A stretch of 64,000 nucleotides of DNA from an uncultured Gammaproteobacteria bacterium (GCA_964531275.1 CAZHDZ010000004.1:73887-137886); one strand, 5' to 3'; counted from the first letter of the stretch, positions 4,979 through 49,460 are shown. Numbers and translations: made by a program. The notes: generated by a model not told the origin, from the letters alone.

Positions 4979-6250
4979 TTACTCTATCTCGTAGATTGGG
5001 AAGTTGCGGAAAGAATCAATCGCTTCTTGTAAATGTCTCTCTGTCTGCGCATACATATCAAATATATTCTCATTATTTTTTACCTCATCATCAACTCTTT
5101 TTTTCAAAAATAAGCCGGCCCTAGCATCCTGAGGAGCCCCTAATATCTTTGCGATTAATGAGACGTTTCTATTATTCACTCTCTTTATTACACCGGATTT
5201 ATTGGATTTCACCTCGTGTGTTTTTGGTCCAGCATGAAGTTTTGAAGAAATAATAGTAGGGTCACCCTTTTGAGCCTCGATTATATCCATCATTTTCTTA
5301 TGAGCAACCCCGCTTATTAATATACTTTCTGCCCATTTCTCAGTGCTCTCGTATTTTTTAGCCTCTTCTTTGATCTTTTCATCAGCACTTTCAAGACATA
5401 AAGTCAAAAGTTCACCAGCAAGTTTTAGAGATTTTTTCTCCAGTGCCATAGGTCTCGTAGGATCCTGCTCAAGCACTTTAAGTGCATCGGCAGCTTCTAA
5501 AAGTGGTCCAATACCATTTCCTGCAGGCTCATATGCATGAGACAGAATTGCCTCAAGTTTTATATTGAATTTTTTGGCAATGAATTTAAATTTCTTGGCT
5601 AAATTCTCGCCGTCTTCCTTGTGGTGTACTTTCATGGTACGGCCATAAGGGATATCAATTACAACGTGATTGGAGCCAAATGCTATCTTTTTCGCCATAA
5701 CAGACACCAAAATCTTGTCAAAACTCTCAAGCGCCAAGGGTTCTTCAACATGTATTATCTGGTCATCAGCAGGTGCAATTTTAAAGCTTCCTCCCCATAC
5801 AATACAGGCATTTGTCTTTTCAACAATTCTATATATGTCATCCTCAGTAAAAGTAACGCTGGCAAGACATTCCATCGAATCCGCAGTACCAGCAGGGGTA
5901 GTGATGGCCCTAGAAGAGCTTTTAGGAATCAAAAATCCTGCACTTGCAATAATTGGCACAATTATCATGGTGGCTCTGGTCCCAGGAAGACCACCGATAG
6001 AATGTTTGTCGGCAACAACCCCTTTAAATTTAAGCTTGTCACCCGTCTCAATCATTGCCTTGGTGAGATAGTAAATCTCATCATAGGTAAAGCCCTTAGA
6101 GTATCCTGAAGCAGCAAAATAGGTAGTTAAGACATCACCCAATCGTTCATTTGCAATCTCATCCATGATCGCAAAAATCTCCTTATAGTTAAGCTCTTTG
6201 CCAACTAATTTTTTTTGTATTGCCTTTAGCGCCAGCGCATTGGGTACCAT
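4979..6250 (-). CDS. AMP phosphorylase / thymidine phosphorylase family protein (archaeal-type nucleoside phosphorylase).
   Basis: 423 aa. Motifs DKHSIGGLPGTRATMIIVPIIASAG and TTPAGTADSMECLA are typical of the pyrimidine-nucleoside / AMP phosphorylase family. Confidence 0.75.
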   Translation of the reverse strand: MVPNALALKAIQKKLVGKELNYKEIFAIMDEIANERLGDVLTTYFAASGYSKGFTYDEIYYLTKAMIETGDKLKFKGVVADKHSIGGLPGTRATMIIVPIIASAGFLIPKSSSRAITTPAGTADSMECLASVTFTEDDIYRIVEKTNACIVWGGSFKIAPADDQIIHVEEPLALESFDKILVSVMAKKIAFGSNHVVIDIPYGRTMKVHHKEDGENLAKKFKFIAKKFNIKLEAILSHAYEPAGNGIGPLLEAADALKVLEQDPTRPMALEKKSLKLAGELLTLCLESADEKIKEEAKKYESTEKWAESILISGVAHKKMMDIIEAQKGDPTIISSKLHAGPKTHEVKSNKSGVIKRVNNRNVSLIAKILGAPQDARAGLFLKKRVDDEVKNNENIFDMYAQTERHLQEAIDSFRNFPIYEIE

Positions 6251-6557: not shown

Positions 6558-6632
6558 AATTCTCAAATTCTAAATTCCAATTTTCAAACTTTTTGGTTAT
6601 TGGTTTTTGATTATTGGTCATTGTTCTGCTGT
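6558..6632. repeat. Copy B of the ~70-bp direct repeat. Overlaps the 3' end of the sortase gene.
   Basis: Same core motif as 6258..6327. The pair flanks a 230-bp segment. Confidence 0.6.
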
Positions 6633-7375
6633 AGGCTCGCTCGAATAACAAGCCTTTTCCAAGTGGTGCCGGGAGGGGTACAGGTTATGAGGGTTATATA
6701 GCTATTGTCATAACTTTGGGAGAAGATATTTGGATCTTTTGGATCCGTAATCCCAATAGAAAATACTTTATAAGTATAGTCTTTACCATTAACAGTCAGA
6801 ACAAAGTCATCTCCTTCTTTTAACGTATGGAGTTTTGCAAAAATTGCCATGTAATTTTTAGGGTCAAACCATTGGGGAAGAGTTGAATGGCCAAATATTA
6901 CTGACGTTCCCTTTTCGATGGGACTTTTTGAAGTGGTAAAATACTGCACCAAATGCTTTGAAAGATCAAAATCGATAGCCGAAACTTTTGCCTTGTTAAT
7001 TCCTTGGGAAGGAATTGAGAATTCATACTCATCGACTTTCTTTACCTCAGCTTGAGTCTGTGCATGAACAACTTCTTGATTTGCTTGATACGGGAACCAA
7101 TTTCTTGCATCTTTATAGTCTGAAGTGACATTCTTAAATCCATGGCTAACAAGCCCTCCTAATGGACTAGAACCATTTAGGACATATCTCTGAGGTATAG
7201 GCGACTGAATCTCGCTCCCCGCAAAGGCTGATGAAAGATAGAGGTGATATGAGATCAATGGAAAGAAGAAGTAAAGGAGTGTTACTATTCCAAGACCGAT
7301 AATAAATAGCCCAAGTAACTTTTTCTTGTTGTGATAAAAAGAAGACCCACCTCTTCCATATGAATATCTATGCAT
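6611..7375 (-). CDS. Sortase-family transpeptidase.
   Basis: N-terminal TM helix, a conserved His region, and the sortase active-site motif ITLITCTPPGT followed by a conserved Arg (VIRA). Confidence 0.65.
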   Translation of the reverse strand: MHRYSYGRGGSSFYHNKKKLLGLFIIGLGIVTLLYFFFPLISYHLYLSSAFAGSEIQSPIPQRYVLNGSSPLGGLVSHGFKNVTSDYKDARNWFPYQANQEVVHAQTQAEVKKVDEYEFSIPSQGINKAKVSAIDFDLSKHLVQYFTTSKSPIEKGTSVIFGHSTLPQWFDPKNYMAIFAKLHTLKEGDDFVLTVNGKDYTYKVFSIGITDPKDPNIFSQSYDNSYITLITCTPPGTTWKRLVIRASLQQNNDQ

Positions 7376-7377
7376 GG

Positions 7378-9624
7378 TTATTGCGTCTTAACCTCAATAC
7401 TAATATTTCCTGGATTTAGAGGCACAATTTGAGGCAAAAATGGAATAGCATTTTCAAATTGAATTGACGCATCTGAAATACCGGGAGTTTGCTTTAGACT
7501 ATCAAGGGCTTCTTTTGATCCTTTCCCCGCAACAATTTTAGGCACTGATTTTTCATCAAGTGATGGCTTGAAAATAGCGTTATACGAAAGTTTTGCTGAG
7601 AGATCTTTTCCGTCTTGCTTGATATCTGAGATTTTAATTGTACTTTCATTATCTGAAAGCTTAAATTCATCGGGTACATCAAATTCATCCGATGAAGAAA
7701 TGAAATTGAGAAGCTCTTCCTTGTTGTAGACTCCCAATGTATATGTTACTGAAGCATTTAACTTCAATGTCTTTGCAGTATCATTCTCTTTTCTGTCAAA
7801 TTTTTTCTCCTTAAAGTCAAAGGAAAGATACATTGGGACCATTGCGTCTTTCTCAGACAAAGATCCTTCTGCTTCTCCTTTTGCTTTATCAAAAAGTCTT
7901 TCAATAACTGATGTTTCAAGTGTCTGCAAGTCTTTCTTAGAAACTACCTGTATCTCTTCCTTTGTTCCGCCTGAGAATGCAGAATCATTTCTTCCGAAAA
8001 CATCAGAAGTAGAAAGGCCCTTTATTGTAAAGTTTGTTTGGGATGGAAGGTTATACTCTTTACCAAAACTCGAAGCTGCAACTTTTGCCTGAGCGCTTTG
8101 GAAAGATGTCGCAAAAGAGCTGGTCGAGGCAATACTAACCGCATCGTTAAGAGTAAATTCAAGATTGTTTGAGGAAGTAATAGTCGATCCTTTTTCTAGT
8201 TGCTTGGGGCTTTCTGTCTTGTTAAAAATGGTTACTGTACCAGTCGCTTTTTGACCGGTATCTTTCTTGCCTGTGGTTTCTTGGGCCTGCTCTCCGCTTG
8301 CCTCTTGCTCTATTGTAGAAATCTTAAGTATTTTATCCTCAAAAGATGAACTACCGCTTGTACTTAATGTTATATCCATCTGATCTTGAGCAAATTCTTT
8401 TTGATCCGTAAATACAATTACCTTCACCTTTACAATTGCTGTGTAATAAATCACAAGAACAACTATCACGACAATAAGCGCAATCAAAGGAATTATAAAT
8501 TGTCTTCCACTACCGATCATTTTTGGGAAGCGAGATAGTGATCTTGGAGTAAAAAAAGAAGCCAATGACTCCTTAAAACCTCTTCGTGCACTACTATGGC
8601 CTTCTACTTCTTCGGGGATGTCCTCCTCATATTCACTTTCAGCAACCTCAGTTTGCTCAATACCATGATGCTTTATAACTGCATGTGAAGTATTATCTTC
8701 ACTAAATTTAAAGCCATCTTCCTCAGGGGTAGTTGGCGACACCTCAGATACTACTTGAGAAGCAACTAGAGCAATGTCTTCGTCTTTCAAAAATCCGAAA
8801 TCATTACTACTCGATTCTTTTACCTCCCCTACTTCTATGTCTTCTTCTCTTGAAGGCGTGACCATTTCACCACTTATCGTTACGTTGAGTTGAGATGCTA
8901 CTCCCGTTATTATTGCTTGATTTTCAAATCCCTTCTCAAGAATAGTCACCTGAGGCAAGTGCATAAATGGAAGTTCTTTCGTCCAGTGATGTGACAGGAA
9001 TTTCTGAGAAACTGCCTCAGCCTCCTTATTGTGAAGAAGAATTATCTTTGGGGGAAGTACATCAAGCTTTGTTACTTGGGAAAGCAATTTTTCAACGGTA
9101 GCCTCAACACCATCCTCTACAATTCCGTGCTTAACATCAATGATATTCCCCCCTCTTACGATAAATACTGTTAAATACTTCTCCGAAAGTTCAACAAAAA
9201 TACCACTGATTGGAGCTCCTTCTTTCTTTTGCAATGCGGCTGTTATTGCCTCAATTGAGACGATAAAACCCATAGGGGTAAGTGCTAGTTCTTGGCTTAT
9301 TTTTTTAAGTTGCGTCAGTCTTTCGGACTTGATTCTTCCTTCCTCAACCCATGAGTAAGGAACTGCAAATATAGTCTTTTCTAAATTCGCACCCTCTGGA
9401 AGGCTCATCTCAATACGCGAAATGACTGTATCACATACAACAATAAGATCTTCTGCAGATGATTGTTCAAGATCTACTGGTGCTTCATGAGAGGAAAGGA
9501 TAATGAGAGTTTTTTCTTGTTCTTTAAAAAGGATAGAGGAAACCTTATCCGACTCAAAAATTAGAGCCAGAAAAAATTCAGTAGTAACAGTCTTTGTTAA
9601 GAATGGTATGGCAGGAAACTTCAT
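7378..9624 (-). CDS. Large hypothetical membrane protein (748 aa): N-terminal cytoplasmic domain, single TM, Ser/Thr-rich extracellular region.
   Basis: Long ORF with one strong hydrophobic helix (FIIPLIALIVVIVVLVIYY) and no recognisable catalytic motif. Abuts the sortase gene. Confidence 0.45.
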   Translation of the reverse strand: MKFPAIPFLTKTVTTEFFLALIFESDKVSSILFKEQEKTLIILSSHEAPVDLEQSSAEDLIVVCDTVISRIEMSLPEGANLEKTIFAVPYSWVEEGRIKSERLTQLKKISQELALTPMGFIVSIEAITAALQKKEGAPISGIFVELSEKYLTVFIVRGGNIIDVKHGIVEDGVEATVEKLLSQVTKLDVLPPKIILLHNKEAEAVSQKFLSHHWTKELPFMHLPQVTILEKGFENQAIITGVASQLNVTISGEMVTPSREEDIEVGEVKESSSNDFGFLKDEDIALVASQVVSEVSPTTPEEDGFKFSEDNTSHAVIKHHGIEQTEVAESEYEEDIPEEVEGHSSARRGFKESLASFFTPRSLSRFPKMIGSGRQFIIPLIALIVVIVVLVIYYTAIVKVKVIVFTDQKEFAQDQMDITLSTSGSSSFEDKILKISTIEQEASGEQAQETTGKKDTGQKATGTVTIFNKTESPKQLEKGSTITSSNNLEFTLNDAVSIASTSSFATSFQSAQAKVAASSFGKEYNLPSQTNFTIKGLSTSDVFGRNDSAFSGGTKEEIQVVSKKDLQTLETSVIERLFDKAKGEAEGSLSEKDAMVPMYLSFDFKEKKFDRKENDTAKTLKLNASVTYTLGVYNKEELLNFISSSDEFDVPDEFKLSDNESTIKISDIKQDGKDLSAKLSYNAIFKPSLDEKSVPKIVAGKGSKEALDSLKQTPGISDASIQFENAIPFLPQIVPLNPGNISIEVKTQ

Positions 9625-18584: not shown

Positions 18585-18787
18585 TCCCGATGCTTCAATA
18601 GTTCTTCTTGCGTTCTTTCGCTTCCCGTTTTTGAATCGATTACGATATAAAAAAGCGCTTGAGAAAGGCCTACAAAGTATTAACTAGTCCCGATGCTTCA
18701 ATAGTTCTTCTTGCGTTCTTTCGCTTCCCGTTTTTGAATCGATTACGATATAAAAAAGCGCTTGAGAAAGGCCTACAAAGTATTAGT
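18543..18787. repeat. Perfect tandem repeat of a 103-bp unit (2.4 copies) covering the last 14 codons plus stop of the permease gene and the convergent intergenic spacer.
   Basis: The unit TATAAAAAAGCGCTTGAGAAAGGCCTACAAAGTATTAACTAG...GAATCGATTACGA starts at 18543, 18646 and 18749. The third copy is truncated at the stop codon of the convergent minus-strand gene. Confidence 0.9.
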
Positions 18788-19413
18788 TAACGGACAGTAA
18801 CATTCAGAATCTTTCGTGTGTTTTTTCCATTTCTATTTTTTGAATCGATTACTATTTGTCTTTGTCCCTCAAATAAATAGAGTGTTTTTTTAAATGTACC
18901 ATCAAGCGAGACATAAGATTCTTGATTGTTAATAAGAACCGTTGCGTATGGATCGGTTTTGCCGCTTACATCAACAATATTATTTCTCACAACTATTTTG
19001 TCTTTAGGAGAAATTACTTCAAGTCTTGGACCTAAGAAGAACGAACTGTATTGCAAGCCAATATAACCAAATATAACAAGCACTACAAGACCAATAATAA
19101 TATTTCGTGGGGTAAGAATAACAATACGTTTTACACTTTTCTCCTGACTCTTGAATGTCGGAAGCATCTTATTCTTGCTACCCTCATATTCACGTCTAAA
19201 AAGTGCTGCCGCCTTCACTTTGTCTATACCTAAAAGAGACGCATAATTTTTAACAAATCCTAAAGCATAACTTTCAGAAGGAAGCTTTTCATATTCACCA
19301 TTTTCGATAGCAATAATAAATAGTTTTTTTATTTTTGTTGCCCTAACAACTTGATCAACAGAATATCCTTTCTCAATACGAGTATCGGAAAGTATCTCAG
19401 AAATTTTTCTCAT
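18787..19413 (-). CDS. RodZ-like HTH (XRE-type) membrane protein.
   Basis: N-terminal helix-turn-helix (GYSVDQVVRATKIKKLFIIAIENGEYEKLPSESYALGFVKNYA), a central TM helix and a C-terminal beta-rich domain. Confidence 0.55.
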   Translation of the reverse strand: MRKISEILSDTRIEKGYSVDQVVRATKIKKLFIIAIENGEYEKLPSESYALGFVKNYASLLGIDKVKAAALFRREYEGSKNKMLPTFKSQEKSVKRIVILTPRNIIIGLVVLVIFGYIGLQYSSFFLGPRLEVISPKDKIVVRNNIVDVSGKTDPYATVLINNQESYVSLDGTFKKTLYLFEGQRQIVIDSKNRNGKNTRKILNVTVR

Positions 19414-24993: not shown

Positions 24994-27432
24994 ATGGAAG
25001 AAATAGAAAGCCAAAAAGAACAATCGGGGATTATATCAGAACCCCCAATTCTAGCTTCAAAAAATCCTACAAGCCCCTCAATCTTTTGGATTAAAAAAAA
25101 TAGAGTTATTGTTGCAATTTTGGGAATTGTTCTTATAGCGGTCCTTGCTGCTGTAGCCTATAAAATGTTTTTCGGAAATTCTGTAACAAGCCTTCTTTAT
25201 CAGAATAAAACTTCCGATTCACCAACTGATTACAATATTAATTACTCTTTTGCAGAATATAAAATTTCAAATACAAAATTCCAGCCAAGTCTTCCAGACT
25301 ATTCGATAGGGCTTTCTGAGATTTCAAATCTTACTGCTTTTGAAGGTGCAACAAAAGTGCCCTTTAACGATGGCCAGAAGACTGCTCTTGCAACAACCAA
25401 TTTCTTCATATCAAAAAATACCGATAAGTTCTGGGGTGATAATCTTGAAGACGCAACCAGCCGCAACGATGACTGGACACAACTATATTCAACGATAGGT
25501 GGAGGAGGAATCTGGGAACGAAAACCTGAAAATTCCGTATTTATATCTTCGGATTTCTTACTTCATGTGTATCACAAGCTTTTAGAAATGCAGTTTGAAT
25601 ATATAGAAAATACAAAGTTCTACCCGCTTCTTAAAGATATAACAGATACAGCATTTGAAAAAGCTGTTGGAGAATATAAGACTTCAGATAACGAAAATAA
25701 GCAAAGCTTCGAGCGAGTAATTGCTTATTTTGCAGTGCCAAAGGCAATCCTTGATGCGGCGCAGAGCGAATTTAGTACAGAAAAAAGCGTAGACACCAAA
25801 GTCGACACTAAAGATGCTATGACCAATGCTCTTACCGCATTAAAAGGTCAAATGCCAACAACCTCCTACGAGCAGGCACAGACAGAACTGAATCGAATAA
25901 TTGAGTCAAAAGATAATTCACCATCAAAAATATTTGGACAGTATCTAGGTAATACCAATGTTTCTGTTAACCACGATTATTCTCAATACACACCACGCAG
26001 TCATTACAATAAAAATTCCGTTTTAAGAAGTTACTTCAGAGCCATGATGTGGTATGGAAGAAATAATTTTGCCCTAGAAAGTCCGGAGCTTACCAGAGAT
26101 GCTCTAAATATAAGCTTGATCATGAAAAATTCTGGACAACTTAAAAATTGGGAATACATATATATACCAACTGCATTTCTTGTTGGAAAGTCTGATGACT
26201 TGGGTATATTTGAATATTCAGAAGCTCTAAAAGGACAAAAAGCTGGAAAGGTTACAAAGCAAGTTGTTGCTAAAGTCCAGAAGGATATGAGTCAATACAC
26301 CGGCCCTAAAATCCAGTCATCCATTATGATTGGTCCTGGAGTAATGGATCTTACAAAAGATGAATTACTTAGCAAAACAAAAGGATTTTACTTTATGGGA
26401 CAGCGATTTACACCGGACGCTCTAATATATACAACGCTTACTCAAGGGGATGAAAAACCAGATCCAGCAACTAACCAGTATCTTCCAAGTATGACAACAG
26501 CTCTTATGGCAATGGATATTTTAGGGAGCAAAACATCTAAAACTCATGTAAATGAATGGATACAAACAAATGCCCAGAATGCTGATAAAGTCCTTGCTAA
26601 CAGACTCACTCTTTTAAGAGACGAATTTGCGAAAATACCTGATACCGTTTGGACGCAAAATATTTATTGGGGCTGGCTTCATACAATACGCTCTCTATTC
26701 ACAGAAGATCTGAACAAAAAAGGGTATCCTAACTTCGTTAAATCTGAAGACTGGAATAACAAGAATCTTCAAACAGCTTTAGGGTCTTATACAGAACTCA
26801 AGCATGACACCCTTCTTTATGCAAAACAATCGTATGCAGAAATGGGAGGCGGAGGGCCTCTTGAGAACCCACCACCAGTTCCAAAGGGATATGTAGAACC
26901 AAATATTCAATTCCTAGACCGTCTTATTGCCCTTACCGAAATGACAAGCAAGGGATTGAGCAATAGAGATTTGATAGATGGAACATTTAAATCTCGCAAC
27001 GAAGATTTTCTCGCAGCTGTAAAATTCTTCAAAGGAATTGCTGTTAAAGAACTTCAGAATGAAAAAATTACCGATGAAGAATTCGAGATCTTAAGAGGCA
27101 AGGGAGGATCCCTCACCCATATTCTTAGCGCACTTCCGGGCGAGGAAATGCTTGAAAAAAATGCACGCTCGGCACTTATTGCAGATATCCATACAGATGC
27201 TAAGAATCAGGAAATATTATACGAGGCAGATGGAATTCCAAACTACATATGGGTTGCCGTAAAAGACCAGAACGGAACAAGACTTACAAAGGGATTGGTA
27301 TACAGCTATTATGAATTTACAAATCCTTTGGGAAAGCGTCTTAATGATGAGGACTGGAGAAAGCTAAATTACACAAGGGATAAATCTGGTCTTCCTCAAT
27401 CACCTCTTTGGGTGCAATCTCTAATTAAATGA
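24994..27432 (+). CDS. Large hypothetical membrane-anchored/secreted protein (812 aa).
   Basis: N-terminal signal anchor (VIVAILGIVLIAVLAAVAY). No catalytic motif recognised. Confidence 0.45.
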   Translation: MEEIESQKEQSGIISEPPILASKNPTSPSIFWIKKNRVIVAILGIVLIAVLAAVAYKMFFGNSVTSLLYQNKTSDSPTDYNINYSFAEYKISNTKFQPSLPDYSIGLSEISNLTAFEGATKVPFNDGQKTALATTNFFISKNTDKFWGDNLEDATSRNDDWTQLYSTIGGGGIWERKPENSVFISSDFLLHVYHKLLEMQFEYIENTKFYPLLKDITDTAFEKAVGEYKTSDNENKQSFERVIAYFAVPKAILDAAQSEFSTEKSVDTKVDTKDAMTNALTALKGQMPTTSYEQAQTELNRIIESKDNSPSKIFGQYLGNTNVSVNHDYSQYTPRSHYNKNSVLRSYFRAMMWYGRNNFALESPELTRDALNISLIMKNSGQLKNWEYIYIPTAFLVGKSDDLGIFEYSEALKGQKAGKVTKQVVAKVQKDMSQYTGPKIQSSIMIGPGVMDLTKDELLSKTKGFYFMGQRFTPDALIYTTLTQGDEKPDPATNQYLPSMTTALMAMDILGSKTSKTHVNEWIQTNAQNADKVLANRLTLLRDEFAKIPDTVWTQNIYWGWLHTIRSLFTEDLNKKGYPNFVKSEDWNNKNLQTALGSYTELKHDTLLYAKQSYAEMGGGGPLENPPPVPKGYVEPNIQFLDRLIALTEMTSKGLSNRDLIDGTFKSRNEDFLAAVKFFKGIAVKELQNEKITDEEFEILRGKGGSLTHILSALPGEEMLEKNARSALIADIHTDAKNQEILYEADGIPNYIWVAVKDQNGTRLTKGLVYSYYEFTNPLGKRLNDEDWRKLNYTRDKSGLPQSPLWVQSLIK

Positions 27433-28301
27433 GTCGAAAATTGATTCTTATTTTTATTGCATTCGCAGCTATTAGCTCTTTTGTTTTTCTTACTATTAAA
27501 AACCCAAAAAACCCAGAACCTACGAAAGTTGAATACCTTGAAAGCTATTTTAAAAATCTAGATGACTACAATGCATCTTTTACTAAGTTTGCAAAGACCA
27601 GTAAGCTTCCAATAAATATCGTAATAACGAGCCATCATTTCTTAGCTCGTGATGTTATTGCGCAGACATTATCAAATGTTGATCCGAAAAGAATTGAGAA
27701 AGTGATAATTATCGCCCCAGACCACTTTCAAAAACTTTCAAATACTAAATATCTTGCTCAGACAATTGATAACGACTGGATAACGCCTTTTGGAATTATG
27801 AAAGCGGATAAGGAGTTGATCAAAAATATTTCAAAAGAAAAAGAAGTTTATTTTGACATCAATACATTTAGAAGCGAGCACGGAATTTACACTCTAGTTC
27901 CTTTTGCAAAAAAGCTATTTGCTAATGCGACAATTACCCCAATCGTCCTAAAGGCTTCTTCAGATTTTGATAAATTTTATGATTTAGGGCAGCATGTTCT
28001 TGGTCTAGTTGATTTTAATAAAACCCTACTTATTATCAGCAGCGACTTTTCCCATGAAGCATCAGTACAAAAAGCTTCTGAAAATGATAAAAAAAGTATC
28101 AGTGCTCTACAGACTATAGATATTAAAAAAATAAATCAAATTGAAAACGACTGCGGACAATGCATTGCTTTTATGTACGGTTTCATGGGTAAGAGTAATA
28201 CTTTTGTAATTGTCAAAAACACAAATTCATATGACGTTTCGGGTCATAGTCCTGAGAGTGTTACCAGTTACGTTAGCGGGTATTATAAAAAAACTAATTA
28301 G
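27429..28301 (+). CDS. MEMO1/AmmeMemoRadiSam protein B-like protein with N-terminal membrane anchor.
   Basis: Motifs VIIIAPDHF and IISSDFSHE resemble the Memo-family GPSH / SSDFSHWG metal-site motifs. Start overlaps the upstream stop. Confidence 0.4.
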   Translation: MSRKLILIFIAFAAISSFVFLTIKNPKNPEPTKVEYLESYFKNLDDYNASFTKFAKTSKLPINIVITSHHFLARDVIAQTLSNVDPKRIEKVIIIAPDHFQKLSNTKYLAQTIDNDWITPFGIMKADKELIKNISKEKEVYFDINTFRSEHGIYTLVPFAKKLFANATITPIVLKASSDFDKFYDLGQHVLGLVDFNKTLLIISSDFSHEASVQKASENDKKSISALQTIDIKKINQIENDCGQCIAFMYGFMGKSNTFVIVKNTNSYDVSGHSPESVTSYVSGYYKKTN

Positions 28302-29185
28302 TTGCCTACCCACTGTGGTTGCGCGAATTCCTTAATGTATGTTGGGATTTTTTCTTCATTTTGAAGCTTATCATCACTGAATTTTAAATTCACAACAAGT
28401 CCTTTTCTTGTCTCCTCACTCCACATTTGATCAAATACAAGATTGCCCAGGGAATAATATACAGGCTTACCGATAATATGATCGCTCTCCTGCACCCAAT
28501 GCGGGTGGTGCCCGGCAATAACGTCAGCACCATTTTCAACTAAAATCTTTGCGATTTCTTTTTGCAGGGAAGTAGAATTTGCACTATATTCATTTCCCCA
28601 ATGCACACCAACAATAAGTAGATCTACAGAAAGCGCTGAATTTCTAACTAATAGATAGTCTTTGTCTGTGGGCTCTTTGGTTACAAAATCAAAACCCAAA
28701 AATCCAAAAGAATATCCATTAACTTTTCTAATTACAAGGTTATTGTCTCCAACATAATCTATTCTATTCTTTTTGAGATATTCTTTCGTTTGCTCAAAAC
28801 CATCTCTTCCATAGTTATACGTATGGTTATTGGCAAGATTTACAATATCGATACCCGCATATACAAGTCCCTCTACCATCTTTGGGTCTGCACAAAACTT
28901 AAATCCCGAATCTATAAATGGACAACTCTTAACAACAGGATTTTCTAGATTTACAAAGGTTAAATCAGCATTCCCAATTTTCGGATAGATTTTTTCAAAA
29001 GGGTACCTCGGATTTTTTATTGACATGCTATGTGACATTACGCTTCTTCCAAGCATCACATCCCCAGCAATAGTAATTGTTGTAGTGCTTGGTTTTTTGT
29101 GATTGGCTGAATTTGAGCTATATACAATAAAACTTAACACTAAGAAGAACACTACAAAAATACCAAAGAGAATAAATTCTTTCAC
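28298..29185 (-). CDS. CapA/PgsA-family metallophosphoesterase-like protein (poly-gamma-glutamate capsule synthesis family).
   Basis: Motifs NLENPV, NLANNHTYNYG, GVHWGNEYS and DVIAGHHPHWVQ. N-terminal TM anchor. Confidence 0.7.
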   Translation of the reverse strand: MKEFILFGIFVVFFLVLSFIVYSSNSANHKKPSTTTITIAGDVMLGRSVMSHSMSIKNPRYPFEKIYPKIGNADLTFVNLENPVVKSCPFIDSGFKFCADPKMVEGLVYAGIDIVNLANNHTYNYGRDGFEQTKEYLKKNRIDYVGDNNLVIRKVNGYSFGFLGFDFVTKEPTDKDYLLVRNSALSVDLLIVGVHWGNEYSANSTSLQKEIAKILVENGADVIAGHHPHWVQESDHIIGKPVYYSLGNLVFDQMWSEETRKGLVVNLKFSDDKLQNEEKIPTYIKEFAQPQWVGN

Positions 29186-41786: not shown

Positions 41787-42380
41787 ATGAATATCAAACA
41801 AAAATTAACATCAGCAGCAGTTGCTGGAGCAATGATGGCGAGTGTAGTAGCCCCGTCAGCATTTGCTGCAAATACTGTTACTGTGAAAGGCGGAGGAGCT
41901 TTTAGCTCTTCAAAGGCTGTAGTTGTAAATAAAAAAACAACAACAGTTGGCCAATCAAACTCAACAGTCGTGCAAACAAATATCGGTCAGAAAGCCTCAA
42001 CAGGTGGCAATTCTTCCTCATTCAACACAGGAGGAACTAGCTCAATCAAAACCGGTAGCGCATCTAATACTGCAGGAGTACACGTTACTGGAGGAACAAA
42101 TACCTACACAACCGATTGCGGATGTGAAGGAAATGGTTCAACTACCATAACTGTAACCGGTGGAGGAGCTTTTAGCTCTTCAAAGGCAATAGTCAAAAAT
42201 ATTTCTACAACTACCGTTAGCCAGTCTAACTCAACAGTAGTAGGAACTTCAATTTGGCAAAGCTCTTCAACTGGACATAATAGCTCAAGCTTCAATACTA
42301 ATGGTGGAGGCACTATCGAAACAGAAGGAGCTACTAATACAGCAGCAGTTGTAGTTGGTGGATCTACAAACACTAACTAG
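41787..42380 (+). CDS. Secreted Asn/Thr/Gly/Ser-rich repeat protein (197 aa) with a signal peptide and a CGCEG motif. Member of the surface-protein family in this cluster.
   Basis: Strong RBS AAGGGGGTGA. Signal peptide AVAGAMMASVVAPSAFA. Two ~85-aa repeats (VTVKGGGAFSSSKAVV...STVVQTNIGQ...TGGNSSSFNTGG). Confidence 0.6.
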   Translation: MNIKQKLTSAAVAGAMMASVVAPSAFAANTVTVKGGGAFSSSKAVVVNKKTTTVGQSNSTVVQTNIGQKASTGGNSSSFNTGGTSSIKTGSASNTAGVHVTGGTNTYTTDCGCEGNGSTTITVTGGGAFSSSKAIVKNISTTTVSQSNSTVVGTSIWQSSSTGHNSSSFNTNGGGTIETEGATNTAAVVVGGSTNTN

Positions 42381-42405
42381 TAAAAAAGTTCTTGCAAGAA
42401 TTTTC

Positions 42406-42439
42406 AAACCCTCCCCTGATCAAGGAGGGTTTGTTTTTT
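42406..42439 (+). terminator. Rho-independent terminator (AAACCCTCC-loop-GGAGGGTTT + T-run).
   Basis: Perfect 9-bp stem followed by GTTTTTT. Lies 25 bp after the stop of 41787..42380. Confidence 0.7.
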
Positions 42440-42496
42440 AGTAAAAGGTCTAAGATTGCCTAGCCACAATACAAAAAATTAGTGGGAGGAATAATA

Positions 42497-42775
42497 TTAA
42501 AAAAACGAAAGAAAAATCATTAGAAGCATTGGGAGAAAGAGCATTAAGCAGAACAACCATAGTACTGAAGCAATCCTTATAGACAAAATTACTCGTGGAT
42601 CTTTAAGCTGTTTTAATCGGGCTTTTACTATTGCTCCATATAGAGGCACTCCGCCAAAAAGTTTTAATTTAGTTTCTTCAGTTTTAATCTCAAGATTTCG
42701 AATACTATCTGGTTTTATAATCAAAAAACAACAAACTGCAATGCAGAAAATCAAATAGATACCAAATAGTAGCAT
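42497..42775 (-). CDS. Small hypothetical membrane protein.
   Basis: 92 aa, two to three TM segments. Confidence 0.35.
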   Translation of the reverse strand: MLLFGIYLIFCIAVCCFLIIKPDSIRNLEIKTEETKLKLFGGVPLYGAIVKARLKQLKDPRVILSIRIASVLWLFCLMLFLPMLLMIFLSFF

Positions 42776-42788
42776 TGTTACATCTTAA

Positions 42789-43343
42789 CTATGATGGTTT
42801 TGCAAATACAAGAAGTCTTTGAAGAGCAGTCCCAATCGGAGTACATGTTTGAAGAATCAAGACATCTCCTTGGTCTTCTTTTAAATACTTTACGTCACTT
42901 GGCCAGACCGTTTTTTTTTCATACACCCTATATATATAGGAAAGACCATTTTTTCTGATGATAATTTCATCTCCATTCTTTACAAATTCCAACTTAAAAA
43001 AAGCAGTGTTATATCGAGTTATTCTCCATGGGACATCGGATGAGTGTGCAAACATATAAACAGTCCCCTTTTCTCCAGGCATACTAGTTCCTTTTGCCTG
43101 AGCTACCCCGTTCTTTAGCTTTTCTATATATTCACTCTCATTGAAAGGATCAACATTGGGAATTACTTTTGAGAAAATCTTTTGCGATGGAATTTCAATA
43201 GAAAAATCGGAAGAGATACGTTGCTCTTGAGATATGTTGGGAGGAAAGAAGAACTCCTTAATAAATGGATAATATATAAAATTTAGGCCAATAAGGGAGG
43301 CAACAATCAGAATGTTTCCTAATATTTTTGAATTCAAACGCAT
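42789..43343 (-). CDS. Sortase-family transpeptidase (second copy in the window).
   Basis: N-terminal TM, His region (YMFAHSSDVPW), active-site LILQTCTP, conserved Arg (LQRL). Confidence 0.65.
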   Translation of the reverse strand: MRLNSKILGNILIVASLIGLNFIYYPFIKEFFFPPNISQEQRISSDFSIEIPSQKIFSKVIPNVDPFNESEYIEKLKNGVAQAKGTSMPGEKGTVYMFAHSSDVPWRITRYNTAFFKLEFVKNGDEIIIRKNGLSYIYRVYEKKTVWPSDVKYLKEDQGDVLILQTCTPIGTALQRLLVFAKPS

Positions 43344-43384
43344 GTTCGTATATTAGTTTATAAACAAGCATTAATCAAATAGGC

Positions 43385-43413
43385 ACAAAAAAACCCTTTT
43401 AAAAGGGTTTTTG
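43385..43413 (-). terminator. Palindromic hairpin AAAACCCTTTT/AAAAGGGTTTT with flanking A/T runs. Terminator for the upstream minus-strand surface-protein gene, possibly bidirectional.
   Basis: Perfect 10-bp palindrome. On the minus strand it is followed by TTTTTTTGTG. Confidence 0.6.
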
Positions 43414-43433
43414 AGGTTAAAGATGGGCCACCA

Positions 43434-44546
43434 TTATGCAATAGCTGGTGGAGACTTAGAAGAGTAAAACCGCAGATACAGCCCAGCTAAGAACATGAAT
43501 ATAAATATGATTGTTGCAACAAAAGTTAATGGAATAGTAAGCCCAGTCCTTGGAAGACTTGTTCCCGGTGTGTTGCTTGAGCCTGCGCTACCACTTGCAC
43601 CCTGTACAATTGATGTTCCGGTTGAAGGATTCTGAGGTTGGGTAGGGCTTGTGGGCTGCTCCGGTTGTTCTGGAGTCTCACATTCACAATCAACGTCAAC
43701 TATGCTTGAGTTGATATTCTCATTCTCTACAGTTATATCGCTCTTTATATCTCCGGTTATAATAACTGAGTCCCCAAGATTTGCTAAAGTGCTATTGCCA
43801 CCAGTGTTCAATTCGTGCTCAATATTATTAAGAATATCTGCAATATTCAGAACCTCAATATCAATTTCACTATCATTATTAATAGCTGAATCATTCTCCG
43901 AGTATGCTCCATTACCCTCAATAACAATTGCTGACGTTCCAACAGATGAATCAACTGAATTAAAGCTATTGTTGATATTCTTATTTAAGACATTTGTGGT
44001 AGCTTTTATATTGCCCGTAACAATCGTTGAGTTGCCGCCATTAAATGAAGCTGAATTATTTCCGGTATTGGCATTAACTTTAATATTGTTAGTAATAGCT
44101 GCCCTATTTATCTGCCCAACACTTACCCCATTGTTATGATTTATGTAGGAAGAGTTATCTGATCCGGTACCATTGCCTGAGACTGTGCTACTTATGTTTT
44201 GTATGCAATTGCAGGTATTACCTATTGCCTTATTGGAGTTGATATTTTGATTATTAATAGCAGTCGTAGTATCAGCATTACCCGTAGATATAACTGAATC
44301 TCCATTTGTGTTTGAGGTAGCGGAATTATTGCCAGTATTGGCGTTAGCTGCAATATTGTTATTAATGTCTGCTGTATTATTCTGAGCTACGGATGTGTTA
44401 TTTGAAGATTCTACATGCACCTCGTTTGAAGATCCTGCCCCATTTCCCGTAACCTCAACAGTAATTTCCTCTGCTTTTATTTGAGTGACTAAGGTTAAAT
44501 TGAGAAGTAAACAGGCTGAGAAAATAACAGCCTTACGTAAAATCAC
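43434..44546 (-). CDS. Secreted Asn/Thr/Gly-rich repeat surface protein with a C-terminal LPRTG sorting signal (probable sortase substrate).
   Basis: Likely GTG start overlapping the upstream TGA (GTGA); the alternative ATG start at 44648 would overlap the upstream gene by ~100 nt. Signal peptide ILRKAVIFSACLLLNLTLVTQIKA. Repeats ANTGNNSA..NTNGDSVISTGNA. DCECE motif. LPRTG + TM + RFYSSK tail. Confidence 0.6.
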   Translation of the reverse strand: MILRKAVIFSACLLLNLTLVTQIKAEEITVEVTGNGAGSSNEVHVESSNNTSVAQNNTADINNNIAANANTGNNSATSNTNGDSVISTGNADTTTAINNQNINSNKAIGNTCNCIQNISSTVSGNGTGSDNSSYINHNNGVSVGQINRAAITNNIKVNANTGNNSASFNGGNSTIVTGNIKATTNVLNKNINNSFNSVDSSVGTSAIVIEGNGAYSENDSAINNDSEIDIEVLNIADILNNIEHELNTGGNSTLANLGDSVIITGDIKSDITVENENINSSIVDVDCECETPEQPEQPTSPTQPQNPSTGTSIVQGASGSAGSSNTPGTSLPRTGLTIPLTFVATIIFIFMFLAGLYLRFYSSKSPPAIA

Positions 44547-46732
44547 AGGAAGAGATGTATTCCTCGTAGCGCGAGTTTTTGGACAGGAACAAATGATTTT
44601 TTGAAAAGAAGTGCCATTCCAGCAAGTGGAAGTGCCATAATCAACCATGCAAGATTTATATGAAGTTTTTTATCAGCTACTGCTGCAGAACCGTCTTGCC
44701 CTACGCTTTTTGCAACAGTAGCCTCATGTAAGTTTGAACTCTTTGTGTTTGAACCTTTGACAGTTCCTACAACGTCGTCATTTTGATCTTCATAAGTAAC
44801 TGTGCCATTAGCAACTTCTACTTGAGCGTTACCCTTTGCACTAGCAACAGTAGATGAAGAATTTGAGTTTGAATGAGACGAAGCGCTATTACTGTTATTT
44901 TCAGATGAATTATTTGAAGAATGGCTTCTCTGCTGTTGTCCTGGGGCAACAAAGTCTCCGAGCCAAGATCCTCCTCCAAAGATGTTAATAACTGTTACAA
45001 ATAGCTTTCCTCCGCCTGTAATATTATTATTAACAAAGTTGACTATATTAGCTACAATTGTTGCATCTCCAGTCACAATATTTGAATCCCCACCTGTGTT
45101 GTAATTTGCCTGATTTCCGCCAGTGTTTGCTGATAGATTAAGCTCGTTATTTATGTTTGCAGTATTAGTCTGGGTTGTTGTGTTGCTGTTAGTGGTTGAA
45201 GCATTTGCATTATTGCCAGATCCTGCGCCGTTTGCATTATTTTTTGCTGTTACTGCCCCCGTTATTGGGTCTACCTCAAATTCCGTTCCTTCTGATCCTG
45301 CCATGCTTGCCCCATCTGCAGCTCCCATAATCTTTCCAAGCCATCGTCCTCCTTCATTAACTATAACTAACCACCAATTTCCACCTGCTATGTTGCTGTT
45401 TGCGATATTTAGAACATTAGCCGTTACGTCACTTGAACCAGTTACTATATTTGAATTTCCATCAGTATTAAAGTTACTGTCATTGTCTCCAGTTGTAGTA
45501 TTTAACTCAAGGTCGTTATTAATAGAAGCGTCATTAGATTGGAATGTGTTGTTGTTATTTGTTGTTGAAGTATTTGCATTATTGTCAGATCCAGCGCCGT
45601 TGCCTGTATTTGCAGCTGTTGTTGGCCCTCCACATGTTCCGCCACAAGCCGCATTCATTGCCTCTTCGGTAAGGATAATATCTCCAACTAAGTCTCCGAA
45701 GATATTAACTACTCCATATATTACGTTTCCAGCGATATTATTATTGGCGAATGTTAGGACATTCGCACTCACATTAGCGTCTCCAGTAGTTATTGATGAG
45801 TCTCCTCCGGTATTGAAGTTGGCTTCGTTGTCACCAGAATTTGCTGAAAGATTTAGTGTGCTTCCAACAGATGCATTATTATTCTGATTTGTACTGTTAT
45901 TATTTGTAGTTGAGGAATTTGCATTATTGTCAGAATTTGCACCATTGCCTGAATTATTTACACTAAGTGCTTGACCACCGCACCCTTGGATACAGTTTGC
46001 CCCAAAGTCTAAGATGATATCTCCATTGTGATCATCTGCAATATTAAATTCGCTTATCGCTACTCCGTCTACATTTGTATTAACAGCCGTAACTACAGTC
46101 CCAGTAGTATTTGCGTCTCCAGTAGTTACTGATGAGTCGCCTACGTTAAATGAGGTTGAATTACCCCCAGTAACAGTTGCTTGATTAAGGTTGTTAGAAA
46201 CATGAGCTCCGTTATTTTGATTTGTATTATTATTGTTAGTTGTTGAAGCGCTTGCATTATTATCAGATCCTGCTCCGTTTCCAGTGTTTGCTGCTGATGT
46301 CCCAGCTCCTCCAGCTCCTCCGTCGGTCGCTAAATTATTATTACCAGTAGTTGTAGTGGTTGAATTGTTATTTGCATCACCAGTATTTACAGCAGTATCT
46401 CCAACAGCTCCATTTGAAGAAGTCCCTTGACTAGATGTTGGATTCTGTTGATCTTGATTGGTCTGATTTGATTCATTATTGACTCCACCCTGCCAATTTC
46501 CACTTGGAGATTTTGGTGCTTGAGGAGCAGTAGGCATTTGTGGTGCTTGAGGAGCTACTGGTGCAGCCGGGGTTGCTGGTGAAGCTGGAGCAACAGGTGC
46601 CTCAGGTGCAGCTGGAGCAACAGGTGCAGCCGGCGTAGGAATTTCCTGGGCAAATGCAGCAGCAGGGACTAATACCTTTATGGTCAAAAGGAATATTAAA
46701 AGTGAACTTGCAATTGTTTTTCTTAATTTCAT
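44543..46732 (-). CDS. Large secreted Asn/Thr/Gly-rich repeat surface protein (729 aa) with an N-terminal Pro/Ala-rich linker and a C-terminal hydrophobic anchor (LPLAG-like).
   Basis: Signal peptide. PAAPVAPAAPEAPVAP linker. Four repeats of NTGNGAGSDNNA...TGDN.ANFNTGGDS.I.TGDA.V.ANVL..AN.NIAG. Confidence 0.6.
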   Translation of the reverse strand: MKLRKTIASSLLIFLLTIKVLVPAAAFAQEIPTPAAPVAPAAPEAPVAPASPATPAAPVAPQAPQMPTAPQAPKSPSGNWQGGVNNESNQTNQDQQNPTSSQGTSSNGAVGDTAVNTGDANNNSTTTTTGNNNLATDGGAGGAGTSAANTGNGAGSDNNASASTTNNNNTNQNNGAHVSNNLNQATVTGGNSTSFNVGDSSVTTGDANTTGTVVTAVNTNVDGVAISEFNIADDHNGDIILDFGANCIQGCGGQALSVNNSGNGANSDNNANSSTTNNNSTNQNNNASVGSTLNLSANSGDNEANFNTGGDSSITTGDANVSANVLTFANNNIAGNVIYGVVNIFGDLVGDIILTEEAMNAACGGTCGGPTTAANTGNGAGSDNNANTSTTNNNNTFQSNDASINNDLELNTTTGDNDSNFNTDGNSNIVTGSSDVTANVLNIANSNIAGGNWWLVIVNEGGRWLGKIMGAADGASMAGSEGTEFEVDPITGAVTAKNNANGAGSGNNANASTTNSNTTTQTNTANINNELNLSANTGGNQANYNTGGDSNIVTGDATIVANIVNFVNNNITGGGKLFVTVINIFGGGSWLGDFVAPGQQQRSHSSNNSSENNSNSASSHSNSNSSSTVASAKGNAQVEVANGTVTYEDQNDDVVGTVKGSNTKSSNLHEATVAKSVGQDGSAAVADKKLHINLAWLIMALPLAGMALLFKKSFVPVQKLALRGIHLFL

Positions 46733-46838
46733 ATTTTTATTTATTGTTTTAACTATCTTTTTTTTATTTTTATTCTATTCATCTTGGATTGTAGGGCACT
46801 TTGCCGAAGTGCTAGCATTGCACCCTACAAAACCAAAA

Positions 46839-48095
46839 TTAGTTAGACATTCCGAAGATTGCCCAAAGTGCTGCAAAGTTGAAAGAAAAGTCAACTTCTG
46901 GCATTTCTGGCATATCGAATGGAAGAGATCCAACTGAGTTAACGTTACCTGAGTTTGAAACTGAAGTTGAAGATTTTGCATTTCCAGTTACAATTGCTGG
47001 GTCAGTTTCGTGATCCACTGATCCTGTGTTGTATCCTGCTTCATTATCTCCTGTTTCTGCGTCATCAACATCAACATTGTTATCTAAGTTAGCTGCATTA
47101 TTTTGTGCAACTGCCTTAGCGTTAGCTAGGTTAAGTCCGATATAATTATCGTCCTTATCCCACCATTTGTGATCTGTGTCAGCGCCGTTTCCTGCAATTT
47201 TTGCAGTTACGTCGAATTCACATCCACAATCTACATCAGCGAAATTAAAGTTAACAGAATTGTCAACTCCAACTTCAACATCTGAGTTACCAGTAAGGAT
47301 AACTACGTCGCCTCCTGTATTAAAGTTAGCATCGTTGTCTCCTGTTTCGGCGTCAACATCAACTTCGTTGTCGATATCTGCATTGTTGTTTTGAGCAACA
47401 GATGTAGCATTTGTCATTGAAGCTAATATTTCATTGTCGCTTCCAGCGCCGTTTCCGACGATTGTGAAGCTAGCCTGTGGTGTTGGTGTAGCGCTCATGC
47501 CTCCACCTACTTGTGCTGAATTAACATTAGCAAGTGTAGAAACATCAACGTTTACCTTTGCATTACCAGTTTTGATAACAACATCGCCACCAGTATTTAG
47601 GCCTGCTTTGTTGTCTCCGGTTTCTGCATCTACATCTACGTTATTGTCAACGTTTGCTGTGTTATTCTGAGCAACGGTTGTAGCATTAACATTTGTTAGT
47701 CCTACTCCATTGTTAGACTTAGCTCCGTTTCCTGAGATTTTAACTTCAGTGTTTGAAGCACCACAACAATCAACATTTGCAATGTTCTTATTAAGATCAT
47801 TAGCAACTGTTGCGTTTACTTTTGCATCGCCAGTTTGAATACCTACGTTTCCGCCAGTATTGTAATTAGCTTTGTTATCTCCAGTATCTGCGTTGGTTTT
47901 TACTGTATTTGTAACATTAGCTGTGTTGTTCTGAGAAACGGTTGTAGTGTTGGTATTTTGAACAGCAACATTGCTGTCAGCTCCAGCTCCGTTTCCAGAG
48001 ATTTCGATAGTAGTAGCGAATGCTGGAGTTGCGATATTTGCAACCATAACTCCTGCTGTTACTACTGAGAAAATTTGTTTTTTGAAATTTGTCAT
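46839..48095 (-). CDS. Secreted Asn/Thr/Gly-rich repeat surface protein (418 aa) with VDCGCE / VDCCG motifs.
   Basis: Strong RBS GAGGAGGTG. Signal peptide VVTAGVMVANIATPAFA. About four ~75-aa repeats (ISGNGAGSDN...VAQNN.A.VDN.VDVDAETGDN.A..NTGGDVVI.TGNA.V). Confidence 0.65.
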   Translation of the reverse strand: MTNFKKQIFSVVTAGVMVANIATPAFATTIEISGNGAGADSNVAVQNTNTTTVSQNNTANVTNTVKTNADTGDNKANYNTGGNVGIQTGDAKVNATVANDLNKNIANVDCCGASNTEVKISGNGAKSNNGVGLTNVNATTVAQNNTANVDNNVDVDAETGDNKAGLNTGGDVVIKTGNAKVNVDVSTLANVNSAQVGGGMSATPTPQASFTIVGNGAGSDNEILASMTNATSVAQNNNADIDNEVDVDAETGDNDANFNTGGDVVILTGNSDVEVGVDNSVNFNFADVDCGCEFDVTAKIAGNGADTDHKWWDKDDNYIGLNLANAKAVAQNNAANLDNNVDVDDAETGDNEAGYNTGSVDHETDPAIVTGNAKSSTSVSNSGNVNSVGSLPFDMPEMPEVDFSFNFAALWAIFGMSN

Positions 48096-48560: not shown

Positions 48561-49460
48561 CTAGTATTTGAAGTTAAGATCAATAGTCTTTTTATCTCCA
48601 TCTATTTCTCCAACTTTAAGTTGGACTATCTTTTTTGCATCAGCTTCGTCAATTGCAACTCCAATTCGTGTGTATTTTGTAGAGATTGCCTGAACTTCGA
48701 CTGGATCATTATGTATATCTGGAGCAAGTTGTTCAGTCTTATTACTTTGCGCAACAAGTCTCACATAATCCCTTGTATTCAATTGTATGGTCTGCTTAAG
48801 ATTGTTAGTAATTTTCAAACTAAGAATAAGAAAGACTCGTCCATCAACTGCTGTTGCTCTTTGTCCCTGCACAATAATCTGTTTTTGTATTGACGCAGAC
48901 TGAACAACATAATCAAATGAACCAACCTCTTTTCCTTTGTCATCCTTTAACGGAAATACAAATTTTCTATCTAAATGAACAGTTGCTAGGGCATTAAGAT
49001 TCGCAGACTTTTTTGAATCATCACTTACAGGCCTGCTTTGAGCATCAGGAAGAGATCTAACAATACTTATAATAGCGGCCAACACAATAACTCCAGCGAC
49101 AACAGGGATTATTTTTTTGAAATTCAATTTCTTAAAATCAAATCCTCCATTATTCATTTTTGGGAATCTTAGTCGTCGTGCTCTTGATGAAGCTTGTGAG
49201 GATGCATTATTAACACTCGAAGAAATAGGGTTATATATATTTGAAAATAGTACAACAGCTCGCTCAGCTACTCTTTGCATAAAAGCTTCAACATTGATTG
49301 TCGGAAGAGAAAATGATAACTCTACTTTTTTTGTTGTTGTGATAGGCGTTGGTGTTGTCATATTTTCCAAAAAAAATGCCCCGCATCTACGGGGCAGTAA
49401 GTTCTTACGGATCTTAGCAAAAGGAATTAGGGCTGTCAAGATAGTTTTTGAGCAAAACAA
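48561..49460 (-). CDS. Hypothetical membrane-anchored protein with a C-terminal beta-rich (Ig-like) domain. Start uncertain.
   Basis: TM IIPVVAGVIVLAAIISIV. Divergently placed relative to the MacAB-like operon. Confidence 0.4.
   Translation of the reverse strand: MFCSKTILTALIPFAKIRKNLLPRRCGAFFLENMTTPTPITTTKKVELSFSLPTINVEAFMQRVAERAVVLFSNIYNPISSSVNNASSQASSRARRLRFPKMNNGGFDFKKLNFKKIIPVVAGVIVLAAIISIVRSLPDAQSRPVSDDSKKSANLNALATVHLDRKFVFPLKDDKGKEVGSFDYVVQSASIQKQIIVQGQRATAVDGRVFLILSLKITNNLKQTIQLNTRDYVRLVAQSNKTEQLAPDIHNDPVEVQAISTKYTRIGVAIDEADAKKIVQLKVGEIDGDKKTIDLNFKY

Follow-up and report, generated by a model that had tools for sequence, protein, structure and literature searches.

We analysed a gene cluster in a 64,000-nucleotide (nt) stretch of DNA deposited as an uncultured Gammaproteobacteria bacterium (GCA_964531275.1 CAZHDZ010000004.1:73887-137886), referred to here as the window, on which all coordinates are counted. 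Positions 41787-48095 hold four genes for secreted repeat proteins, named A, B, C and D, together with a sortase gene (Table 1). A preliminary description of this region had reported a cluster of signal-peptide proteins with repeats, Cys motifs and a sortase, and we recovered all four open reading frames (ORFs), their repeats, the Cys motifs and the sortase at the same positions. The conserved cluster reaches beyond this interval, to ~49361, and includes in addition a DUF2292 gene and the gene of a transmembrane protein.

Table 1. Genes and features of the repeat-protein cluster (aa, amino acids)
Feature	Coordinates	Strand	Parts and motifs	Basis
Gene A, secreted, 197 aa	41787..42380	+	Leader with cleavage after AFA; two repeats 41874-42377; CGC motif 42117-42125 (DCGCE); without anchor	ORF, repeat, orthologues
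Cluster sortase, 184 aa	42789..43343	-	N-terminal hydrophobic/transmembrane segment; His in AHS 43041-43049; LQTC 42843-42854; following Arg (..QRL)	Pfam Sortase
Gene B, candidate sortase substrate, 370 aa	43434..44546	-	Leader; three repeats 43677-44465; CNC and CEC motifs (TCNC, DCECE); Pro/Gln/Ser/Gly linker; LPRTG, transmembrane segment and basic tail 43437-43556	ORF, repeat, sorting signal
Gene C, membrane-anchored paralogue, 729 aa	44543..46732	-	Leader; Pro/Ala-rich segment 46502-46648; then half repeat and four long repeats at 44939-46297, each long repeat with a hydrophobic extension of ~25 aa; CxxxC motifs 45980-45994 and 45632-45646 (CIQGC, CGGTC); Ser/Asn-rich stalk; INLAW (44645-44659), transmembrane segment and basic tail 44585-44659	ORF, repeat, C-terminal transmembrane segment
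Gene D, secreted, very acidic, 418 aa	46839..48095	-	Leader; four repeats 46929-48011; CC 47763-47768 (VDCC); CGC 47220-47228 (VDCGCE)	ORF, repeat, model
C-terminal hydrophobic peptide of D	46842-46928	-	PEMPEVDFSFNFAALWAIFGMSN	Conserved in orthologues
DUF2292 gene, 66 aa	48346..48546	-		Pfam DUF2292, E=6.3e-08; directly upstream of D in relatives
Single-pass membrane protein gene	48561..49361	-		First gene of the conserved block

When repeat units were cut at the recurring GNGA(G)S motif, 13 units were obtained that align over their whole length: two in A, three in B and four each in C and D. Unit length is 78-93 aa except in C, where it is 106-121 aa, and the units are imperfect, with identities of 35-55%. 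Asn, Thr, Gly, Ser and Ala are abundant in all four proteins (Asn accounts for 16-17% of B, C and D, while A has 18% Thr, 16% Ser and 9% Asn); Cys residues are few and always closely paired. Composition-adjusted BLASTP relates A to D (E=1e-22) and B to C (E=2e-10), so shared composition does not explain the similarity among the paralogues. Every one of the 13 units scores at E=1e-22 to 1e-33 against a profile made from them, which serves only as a consistency check because the same units trained it; this profile found no further match anywhere in the window. We conclude that A to D are paralogues built from one repeat of ~88 aa. In relatives the repeat number is fixed for each paralogue: four in D (189 of 200), four or five in C, three in B and two in A. 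The hydrophobic extension of C (W/Y-L-x-x-V-N-x-x-G-x-W-x-G) is shared with Parcubacteria proteins.

A, C and D start with an N-region that contains Lys, continue with a hydrophobic core and have their cleavage site at AFA, and among 49 orthologues of D the Ala at -1 (A27) is invariant and the Pro at -4 (P24) nearly so. The signal peptides attributed earlier to the repeat proteins are supported as predicted Sec-type leaders, called by eye, whose sequence is conserved in orthologues. For B, the listed start (ATG 44648) lies 39 residues ahead of the hydrophobic core and imposes a 105-nt overlap with C; a GTG at 44546 overlaps the TGA stop of C as GTGA and yields a product beginning M-ILRK, followed by the hydrophobic core and IKA/EE. 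This GTG, rather than ATG 44648, is most likely the true start of B.

The four proteins differ at their C-termini. That of B reads LPRTGLTIPLTFVATIIFIFMFLAGLYLRFYSSKSPPAIA, in which LPRTG precedes a hydrophobic stretch of 21 residues and a basic tail; this is the one LPRTG-type end that had been noted previously, its gene adjoins the sortase gene, and the window encodes no LPXTG protein besides B. Of 59 B orthologues, 38 have the motif LP[AVIMEDT]TG ahead of a transmembrane segment and the tail 'YLR(F/L)RSGxSP'. Another 14 carry G-L-[SA]-x-[TA]-[SA]-[GS] in place of LPxTG, again with a transmembrane segment and basic tail; they are mostly short one-repeat versions from Ames-, Gottesman- and Woesebacteria, with some full-length. 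This sequence may represent an undescribed sorting motif. Loci with such replacements are L020, L021, L022, L029, L030, L032-L034, L038, L041, L049 and L057, and most have a sortase within or beside the cluster. The C protein ends in KKLHINLAW, a hydrophobic helix and KK, and INLAW, the helix and the Lys/Arg tail are conserved in orthologues. Its LPLAG-like end, previously read as a possible sorting signal, did not hold up as such: LPLAG lies within the transmembrane helix of this conserved anchor and varies among orthologues (LPVLG, FPMLV, IPGIA and others). D terminates in a conserved hydrophobic peptide, P-x-M-P-x-V-x-FSFN-x-AAL-x-AFFGMS, without a basic tail, and the product of gene A has no C-terminal signal. 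These C-termini show three predicted modes of retention, namely an LPxTG signal in B, a transmembrane anchor behind a long low-complexity stalk in C, and no anchor in A and D.

The sortase noted inside the cluster was confirmed by its match to Pfam Sortase (PF04203; E=1.7e-22). It has the His, Cys and Arg expected of an active enzyme (Table 1), and L(Q/Y/F)TC is kept in most cluster sortases of relatives. It nevertheless falls below every class cut-off in NCBIfam (class C, 60.4 bits against 160; class D, 43.8 against 165; class E, 39.2 against 160) and passes only the generic TIGR01076; its best class match is class C (2e-16). That match, and the position of the gene among its putative substrates, would suit a covalent pilus of Gram-positive type in which B or its paralogues are isopeptide-joined by a class C-like sortase. 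We consider such a pilus very improbable, because the Pfam scan returned no CnaA, CnaB or pilin domains, the repeat has no conserved Lys or pilin motif (the commonest Lys position reaches 24%) and only B has a sorting signal; the class C score, moreover, is far short of its cut-off. Compared with the LPXTG proteins of Gram-positive bacteria, B is alike in having a full tripartite sorting signal and an adjoining sortase with His, Cys and Arg, and the system differs in that this sortase reaches no NCBIfam class cut-off and that B lacks LPxTG in some lineages.

A second sortase had been counted as part of the same system. It exists (6611-7375, 254 aa; Pfam Sortase E=1.9e-19) and is 31% identical to the cluster sortase, but nothing ties it to the cluster, since the two lie 35 kb apart and it has no LPXTG substrate of its own in the window. 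It is followed (region 6611-9624) by a 748-aa ORF with a weak Baseplate_J match only. Past a nucleoside-phosphorylase gene (4979-6250), the minus strand continues downstream with three consecutive ORFs of ~400-480 aa without a Pfam match (1124-4958); no LPXTG protein is nearby.

Related loci were collected by scanning one genome per species, which returned 80 loci. In nearly all of them the genes run transmembrane protein, DUF2292, D, C, B and sortase, and A is encoded on the other strand. B is followed by a sortase gene in 55 loci, an A orthologue of ~200 aa lies beyond the sortase in reverse orientation in 38, and the DUF2292 gene is present in 70 of 79. Identity of D remains ~45-60% across lineages of candidate-phylum level, and this high conservation, together with the fixed synteny, favours a core component of the envelope over a variable adhesin. 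Loci named for an organism belong to Candidatus Levy-, Gottesman-, Roizman-, Ames-, Woese-, Davies- and Chisholmbacteria and to the 'Microgenomates group', with single loci in records titled Nealson- and Doudnabacteria. Given that these are nearly all Microgenomates, the window most likely derives from a genome of the Microgenomates, a large assemblage of ultra-small bacteria that have not been cultured; the nearest locus, L002, shares 83% DNA identity with it. Many third-party records of metagenome-assembled genomes that contain the cluster (for example L002-L006) are titled 'uncultured Gammaproteobacteria', which looks like systematic mislabelling. We regard the cluster as a real, conserved and uncharacterised surface-protein system of the candidate phyla radiation (CPR). 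In a Levybacteria relative (L001, 16165-19113) and a Parcubacteria relative (L082, 1373-5395), a trio of genes stands beside the repeat-protein genes: a Peptidase_M73 gene (TasA/camelysin-like; the match in L082 is faint), an LTD-domain gene and a HemolysinCabind gene. The trio is not adjacent to the cluster in the window.

The family extends well past these loci. A collection of 5.8 billion proteins yielded at least 736 relatives of D and at least 575 of C, none with a Pfam domain and all named 'hypothetical' except for two evidently automatic labels. Searched against 1.84 billion cluster representatives, the 13-repeat profile matched 3,198 clusters at E<=1e-3, of which 2,166 reached E<=1e-10; proteins of 6-10 repeats are among them, repeat number ranges from 1 to 10 among relatives, and the named clusters are all CPR hypothetical proteins (Parcubacteria group, Andersenbacteria and Woykebacteria). 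The repeat matched no family in Pfam, NCBIfam or PDB sequences. At E<=1, Pfam returned nothing for A, C and D and only a chance TRP match for B, and the scan of A to D found no SLH, CWB2 or similar wall-binding domains. A literature search found no paper on the repeat family. The RTX β-roll (HemolysinCabind, PF00353; GGxGxD) was considered for the GNGAGSD turn and rejected, as there is no Pfam match and Gly10 and Asp12 are conserved in only 37% and 42%. The statement in the preliminary description that these proteins cannot be assigned to known pilin or adhesin families thus stands, and the search with the repeat profile, foreseen from the outset, led to no described family.

To obtain a view of the fold, we ran AlphaFold2 on D and C with alignments of 49 and 51 sequences, respectively. 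The D model is all-β, with a mean predicted local distance difference test score (pLDDT) of 73 and a predicted template modelling score (pTM) of 0.65; the model of the C repeat region is likewise all-β (mean pLDDT 60, pTM 0.59), with repeat cores at 80-87. Every modelled repeat has the same five strands in the order e-a-b-c-d: a 5-residue strand e, the GNGA turn, an unbroken strand a of 30-36 residues, short strands b and c flanking NTGG, and a strand d of 16-19 residues in D and 11 in C. In the C models the extension contributes strands after d, and the Cys-containing linker closes the unit. In the first repeat of D, strand a is continuous over residues 38-72 and the segment that would be its antiparallel partner (109-115) is not a strand, so that strand a must pair in parallel with strand a of repeat 2 (125-160). 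From this we deduce parallel, in-register stacking, in which each repeat would form one coil of a flattened two-sheet β-solenoid. Foldseek comparison of both models with the PDB and with viral models gave no match at E<=0.001; the weak matches were almost all parallel β-solenoids, FapC being the best for both models, along with CsgA, pectate-lyase folds, tailspikes and autotransporter passengers.

Residue statistics over 1,221 repeats bear on the same question. Odd positions of strand a (23-43) are 1.3% charged with an entropy of 1.4 bits, against 31% and 3.1 bits at even positions, the residues Val, Gln, Asn, Ala, Val, Asn, Val, Ala, Ala and Thr occupying the odd positions. This alternation recurs in the return strands, and the turn residues G8, G44, N46, N51, G61, N74 and N76 are 93-100% conserved. 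These statistics support a genuine two-faced β structure, with a predicted core of Asn/Gln ladders and Ala, Val and Ile and with charge on the outside. The earlier suggestion of a β-solenoid or curlin-like repeat fits both this uncharged-inward, charged-outward pattern and the two all-β models.

The repeats might nonetheless adopt a different β fold, such as an antiparallel meander or a sandwich of long hairpins, or fold only on assembly, the modelled solenoid being an artefact of repeat bias. Several points weigh against the solenoid in this respect. Model confidence is moderate, the spread of pLDDT over five models reaching down to 50-53, and no structural neighbour is significant. We read the parallel register solely from the DSSP string and from the kind of folds that Foldseek matched. 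Direct-coupling analysis aimed at parallel versus antiparallel pairing (172 D-family sequences; 716-1,221 repeats) gave no usable contact signal, being dominated by gap and paralogue-subfamily artefacts. A coil of ~88 residues would be far wider than that of any solved solenoid, and we know of no precedent. Moreover, AlphaFold2 over-predicts confident β-solenoids for repeat sequences, a bias that applies to the present models, and stacked buried charges are the mark of spurious ones (PMC11795689). The inferred repeat core is free of such charges, in keeping with the rarity of charge at the core positions of strand a. In addition, the repeats are imperfect rather than identical and were modelled with alignments of about 50 sequences; the Gly/Asn turns (GNG, TGxN, NTGG and TGD) are near-invariant at the same position of every repeat, as in-register stacking would give; and the range of 1 to 10 repeats is easily accommodated by a solenoid. 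We accordingly regard a non-solenoid fold as doubtful.

The paired Cys residues belong to the short coil-closing linker between repeats. In orthologues their counts are mostly even and they take the forms CC, CxC, CxxC and CxxxC, which could stabilize an assembly through disulfides or bound metal. It counts against a central role for the pairs that they are missing from 16 of 77 C orthologues and from four of the relatives with 6-10 repeats whose sequences we read (P0137, P0247, P0266 and P0267), while two others, P0126 and P0184, keep CxxC-type pairs; the Cys residues are therefore not essential to the fold. We also considered a continuous chain of inter-subunit disulfides formed by a Cys pair on every second coil and rejected it, since five-repeat D-like proteins show CC after consecutive repeats; the long 'VGGG..PSAS' linker is the only one in these proteins without the Cys motif. 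Net charge separates the paralogues as well. It is about +4 for A and about -38 for D in the window, and across relatives the medians are -43 for D, -31 for C, -14 for B and about +2 for A. Acidic outward positions are concentrated around the NTGG tip, and the charge pattern might serve to bind cations or to pair the proteins electrostatically.

Among known systems, two bear the closest resemblance. Chaplins have sortase-anchored long paralogues and free short paralogues, with two Cys in most, and co-assembly of the two kinds has been proposed as the means by which the layer is held to the wall (PMC5618241). The chaplins of Streptomyces (ChpA-C long, ChpD-H short; PF03777/DUF320) are, like A to D, β-forming surface paralogues, and here too a longer member, B, has the sortase signal and a shorter one, A, is free, both being conserved in relatives. 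A to D differ in having no PF03777 match and in their unit, which is ~88 aa, Asn/Thr/Gly-rich and acidic, whereas the chaplin domain is ~40-55 aa and hydrophobic; they differ further in the membrane-anchored paralogue C, the two extra conserved genes and a CPR rather than an actinomycete host. In curli, the inward-facing residues of the curlin core are Asn/Gln and hydrophobic and the outward-facing ones polar, and head-to-tail stacking joins the subunits (PMC10192328). CsgA and CsgB share with A to D the tandem imperfect repeats, each forming one coil (by prediction here) of a two-sheet solenoid, the variable repeat number, and, from the 1,221-repeat statistics, the inward Asn/Gln and hydrophobic and outward polar or charged residues. 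In curli the anchored paralogue is proposed to nucleate the free one, the role that we propose for B and C towards A and D. Unlike curli, A to D have no Curlin_rpt match (PF07012), their unit of 78-121 aa has five strands per repeat where the curli coil has ~19-23 aa, Pfam scans of the window found no CsgG/E/F-type genes, and anchoring is by sortase and transmembrane helix; the Foldseek match to CsgA (8c50) has E=0.53 and a template modelling score (TM-score) of 0.05. Because profile matches and unit size both fail, A to D are neither a chaplin nor a curli family; by analogy, the system would work most like these two while belonging to neither.

Two further comparisons are with FapC and with the Pam pilus. 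The functional amyloid FapC of Pseudomonas (PDB 9u4u and 9nqd) is a stacked imperfect-repeat cross-β structure, and Fap proteins, like A to D, have conserved Cys; the FapC matches are not significant (E=0.019 and 0.32, TM-score 0.06-0.20), and there is no sequence similarity to A to D. A Microgenomates version of the Pam pilus of CPR bacteria, with Ig-like pilins joined by donor-strand exchange, would account for the host and the Cys residues, in that Pam pilins are CPR-specific, have been reported in Microgenomatia and contain paired Cys. They have, however, a two-domain Ig-like/β-sandwich fold and membrane-anchored PapD/FimC-like chaperones and are encoded beside ATP-synthase genes, and sortase is mentioned in the introduction of that paper only (bioRxiv 10.64898/2026.03.03.709456). 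A to D are modelled as repeat solenoids, the cluster has no chaperone-like gene, and its neighbours are nusA/infB and an ABC exporter, not ATP synthase. Judging by the published description of Pam, we reject identity with it on fold and gene context and hold a Microgenomates version of it to be extremely improbable.

We tentatively propose, with a confidence that approaches but does not reach even, that the cluster is a cell-envelope module in which tethered solenoid subunits stack, in chaplin- or curli-like fashion, into a fibre or layer held at the wall and the membrane. A to D would be exported through their Sec-type leaders, and each repeat would form one coil of a flattened two-sheet β-solenoid, with strand a running out to the NTGG turn, strands b, c, d and e returning to the GNGA turn and the Cys linker closing the coil. 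The sortase would cleave B between the Thr and Gly of LPxTG and join it to peptidoglycan, and C would be held in the membrane on its long Ser/Asn stalk, with its Pro/Ala-rich N-terminal extension. A and D would be released and dock end-on onto tethered B and C; all four would have the same open solenoid ends, and the free proteins could therefore dock on the anchored ones. The product would be a fibre or layer tethered to both wall and membrane, which the paired Cys could stabilize.

Less probable, though deserving serious weight, is the alternative that A to D are stand-alone, monomeric, capped β-solenoids on stalks, serving as a wall- or ligand-binding module or as adhesins, with the sortase merely displaying B. 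Monomers are common among β-solenoid surface proteins, and the Foldseek matches include such adhesins and autotransporter passengers. C has an N-terminal half repeat, and B and C have stalk-like low-complexity linkers. D has an irregular fourth and last repeat, and the conserved C-terminal peptide after it could cap the solenoid and block stacking; this also speaks against the stacking that we propose, as does the fact that polymerization is argued from sequences and single-chain models, fold, assembly and function alike resting on prediction and analogy. On the other side, four co-conserved paralogues with identical core residues and different anchoring form the pattern of a co-assembling system, and A consists of two bare coils with no visible cap. 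The outward positions are variable, so that no conserved ligand-binding face is evident, and the conservation of D is unusually high for an adhesin.

The remaining features of the region concern the borders of the cluster and its surroundings. The membrane-protein gene encodes a strongly conserved extracytoplasmic C-terminal domain of ~140 aa that may be DUF4352-like (a weak match, in one of 14 members, E=0.0011). Its ORF is listed to 49460, and the start is likely ATG 49361, as suggested by gaps in orthologue alignments and by a strong terminator-like hairpin at 49377-49396 on the minus strand, within the listed 5' end (8 bp with 6 GC, then T8). This hairpin may terminate an upstream transcript. 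A promoter scan performed no better than on shuffled sequence, and promoter and terminator scans together yielded no clear operon map. Between the sortase gene and gene A lies an ORF on the minus strand (42497-42775; 92 aa, hydrophobic at both ends), which we rejected as a cluster member because none of the 80 related loci has a homologue; L002 does not align over ~42441-42796, and the ORF is either a strain-specific insertion or no gene. The cluster is surrounded by nusA/infB and by HlyD/ABC/MacB genes of an ABC exporter. Other envelope-related genes in the window encode an 812-aa DUF3160 protein (24994-27432, plus strand; E=8e-152), a PGA_cap capsule-synthesis protein (28298-29185, minus strand) and an HTH_25 protein with a Glucodextran_B domain (18787-19413, minus strand).

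A bolder reading, which we think unlikely, would make this family the principal structural polymer of the Microgenomates surface, with variants in other CPR bacteria: a functional-amyloid-like tethered layer or fibre with the widest coil known, ~88 residues, in which a Cys pair in the linker that closes each coil would lock the polymer or load it with metal, and which would be assembled by Sec and one sortase only. If the long strand is straight, such a coil would be roughly 11 nm wide, and, should the prediction be true, this unusually wide solenoid geometry would be of interest to structural biology and materials design. These hypotheses are open to recombinant-protein tests that do not call for culturing the organism.

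The CPR, or Patescibacteria, make up a large share of bacterial diversity, and their surface composition and host contact are almost uncharted. The cluster described here keeps a fixed gene order in ~80 related loci and in seven named Microgenomates lineages, and its repeat defines ~3,200 protein clusters covered by no solved structure or curated family. If the predicted assembly is true, it would be the third independent case, after curli and chaplins, of a tethered paralogue on which others stack.

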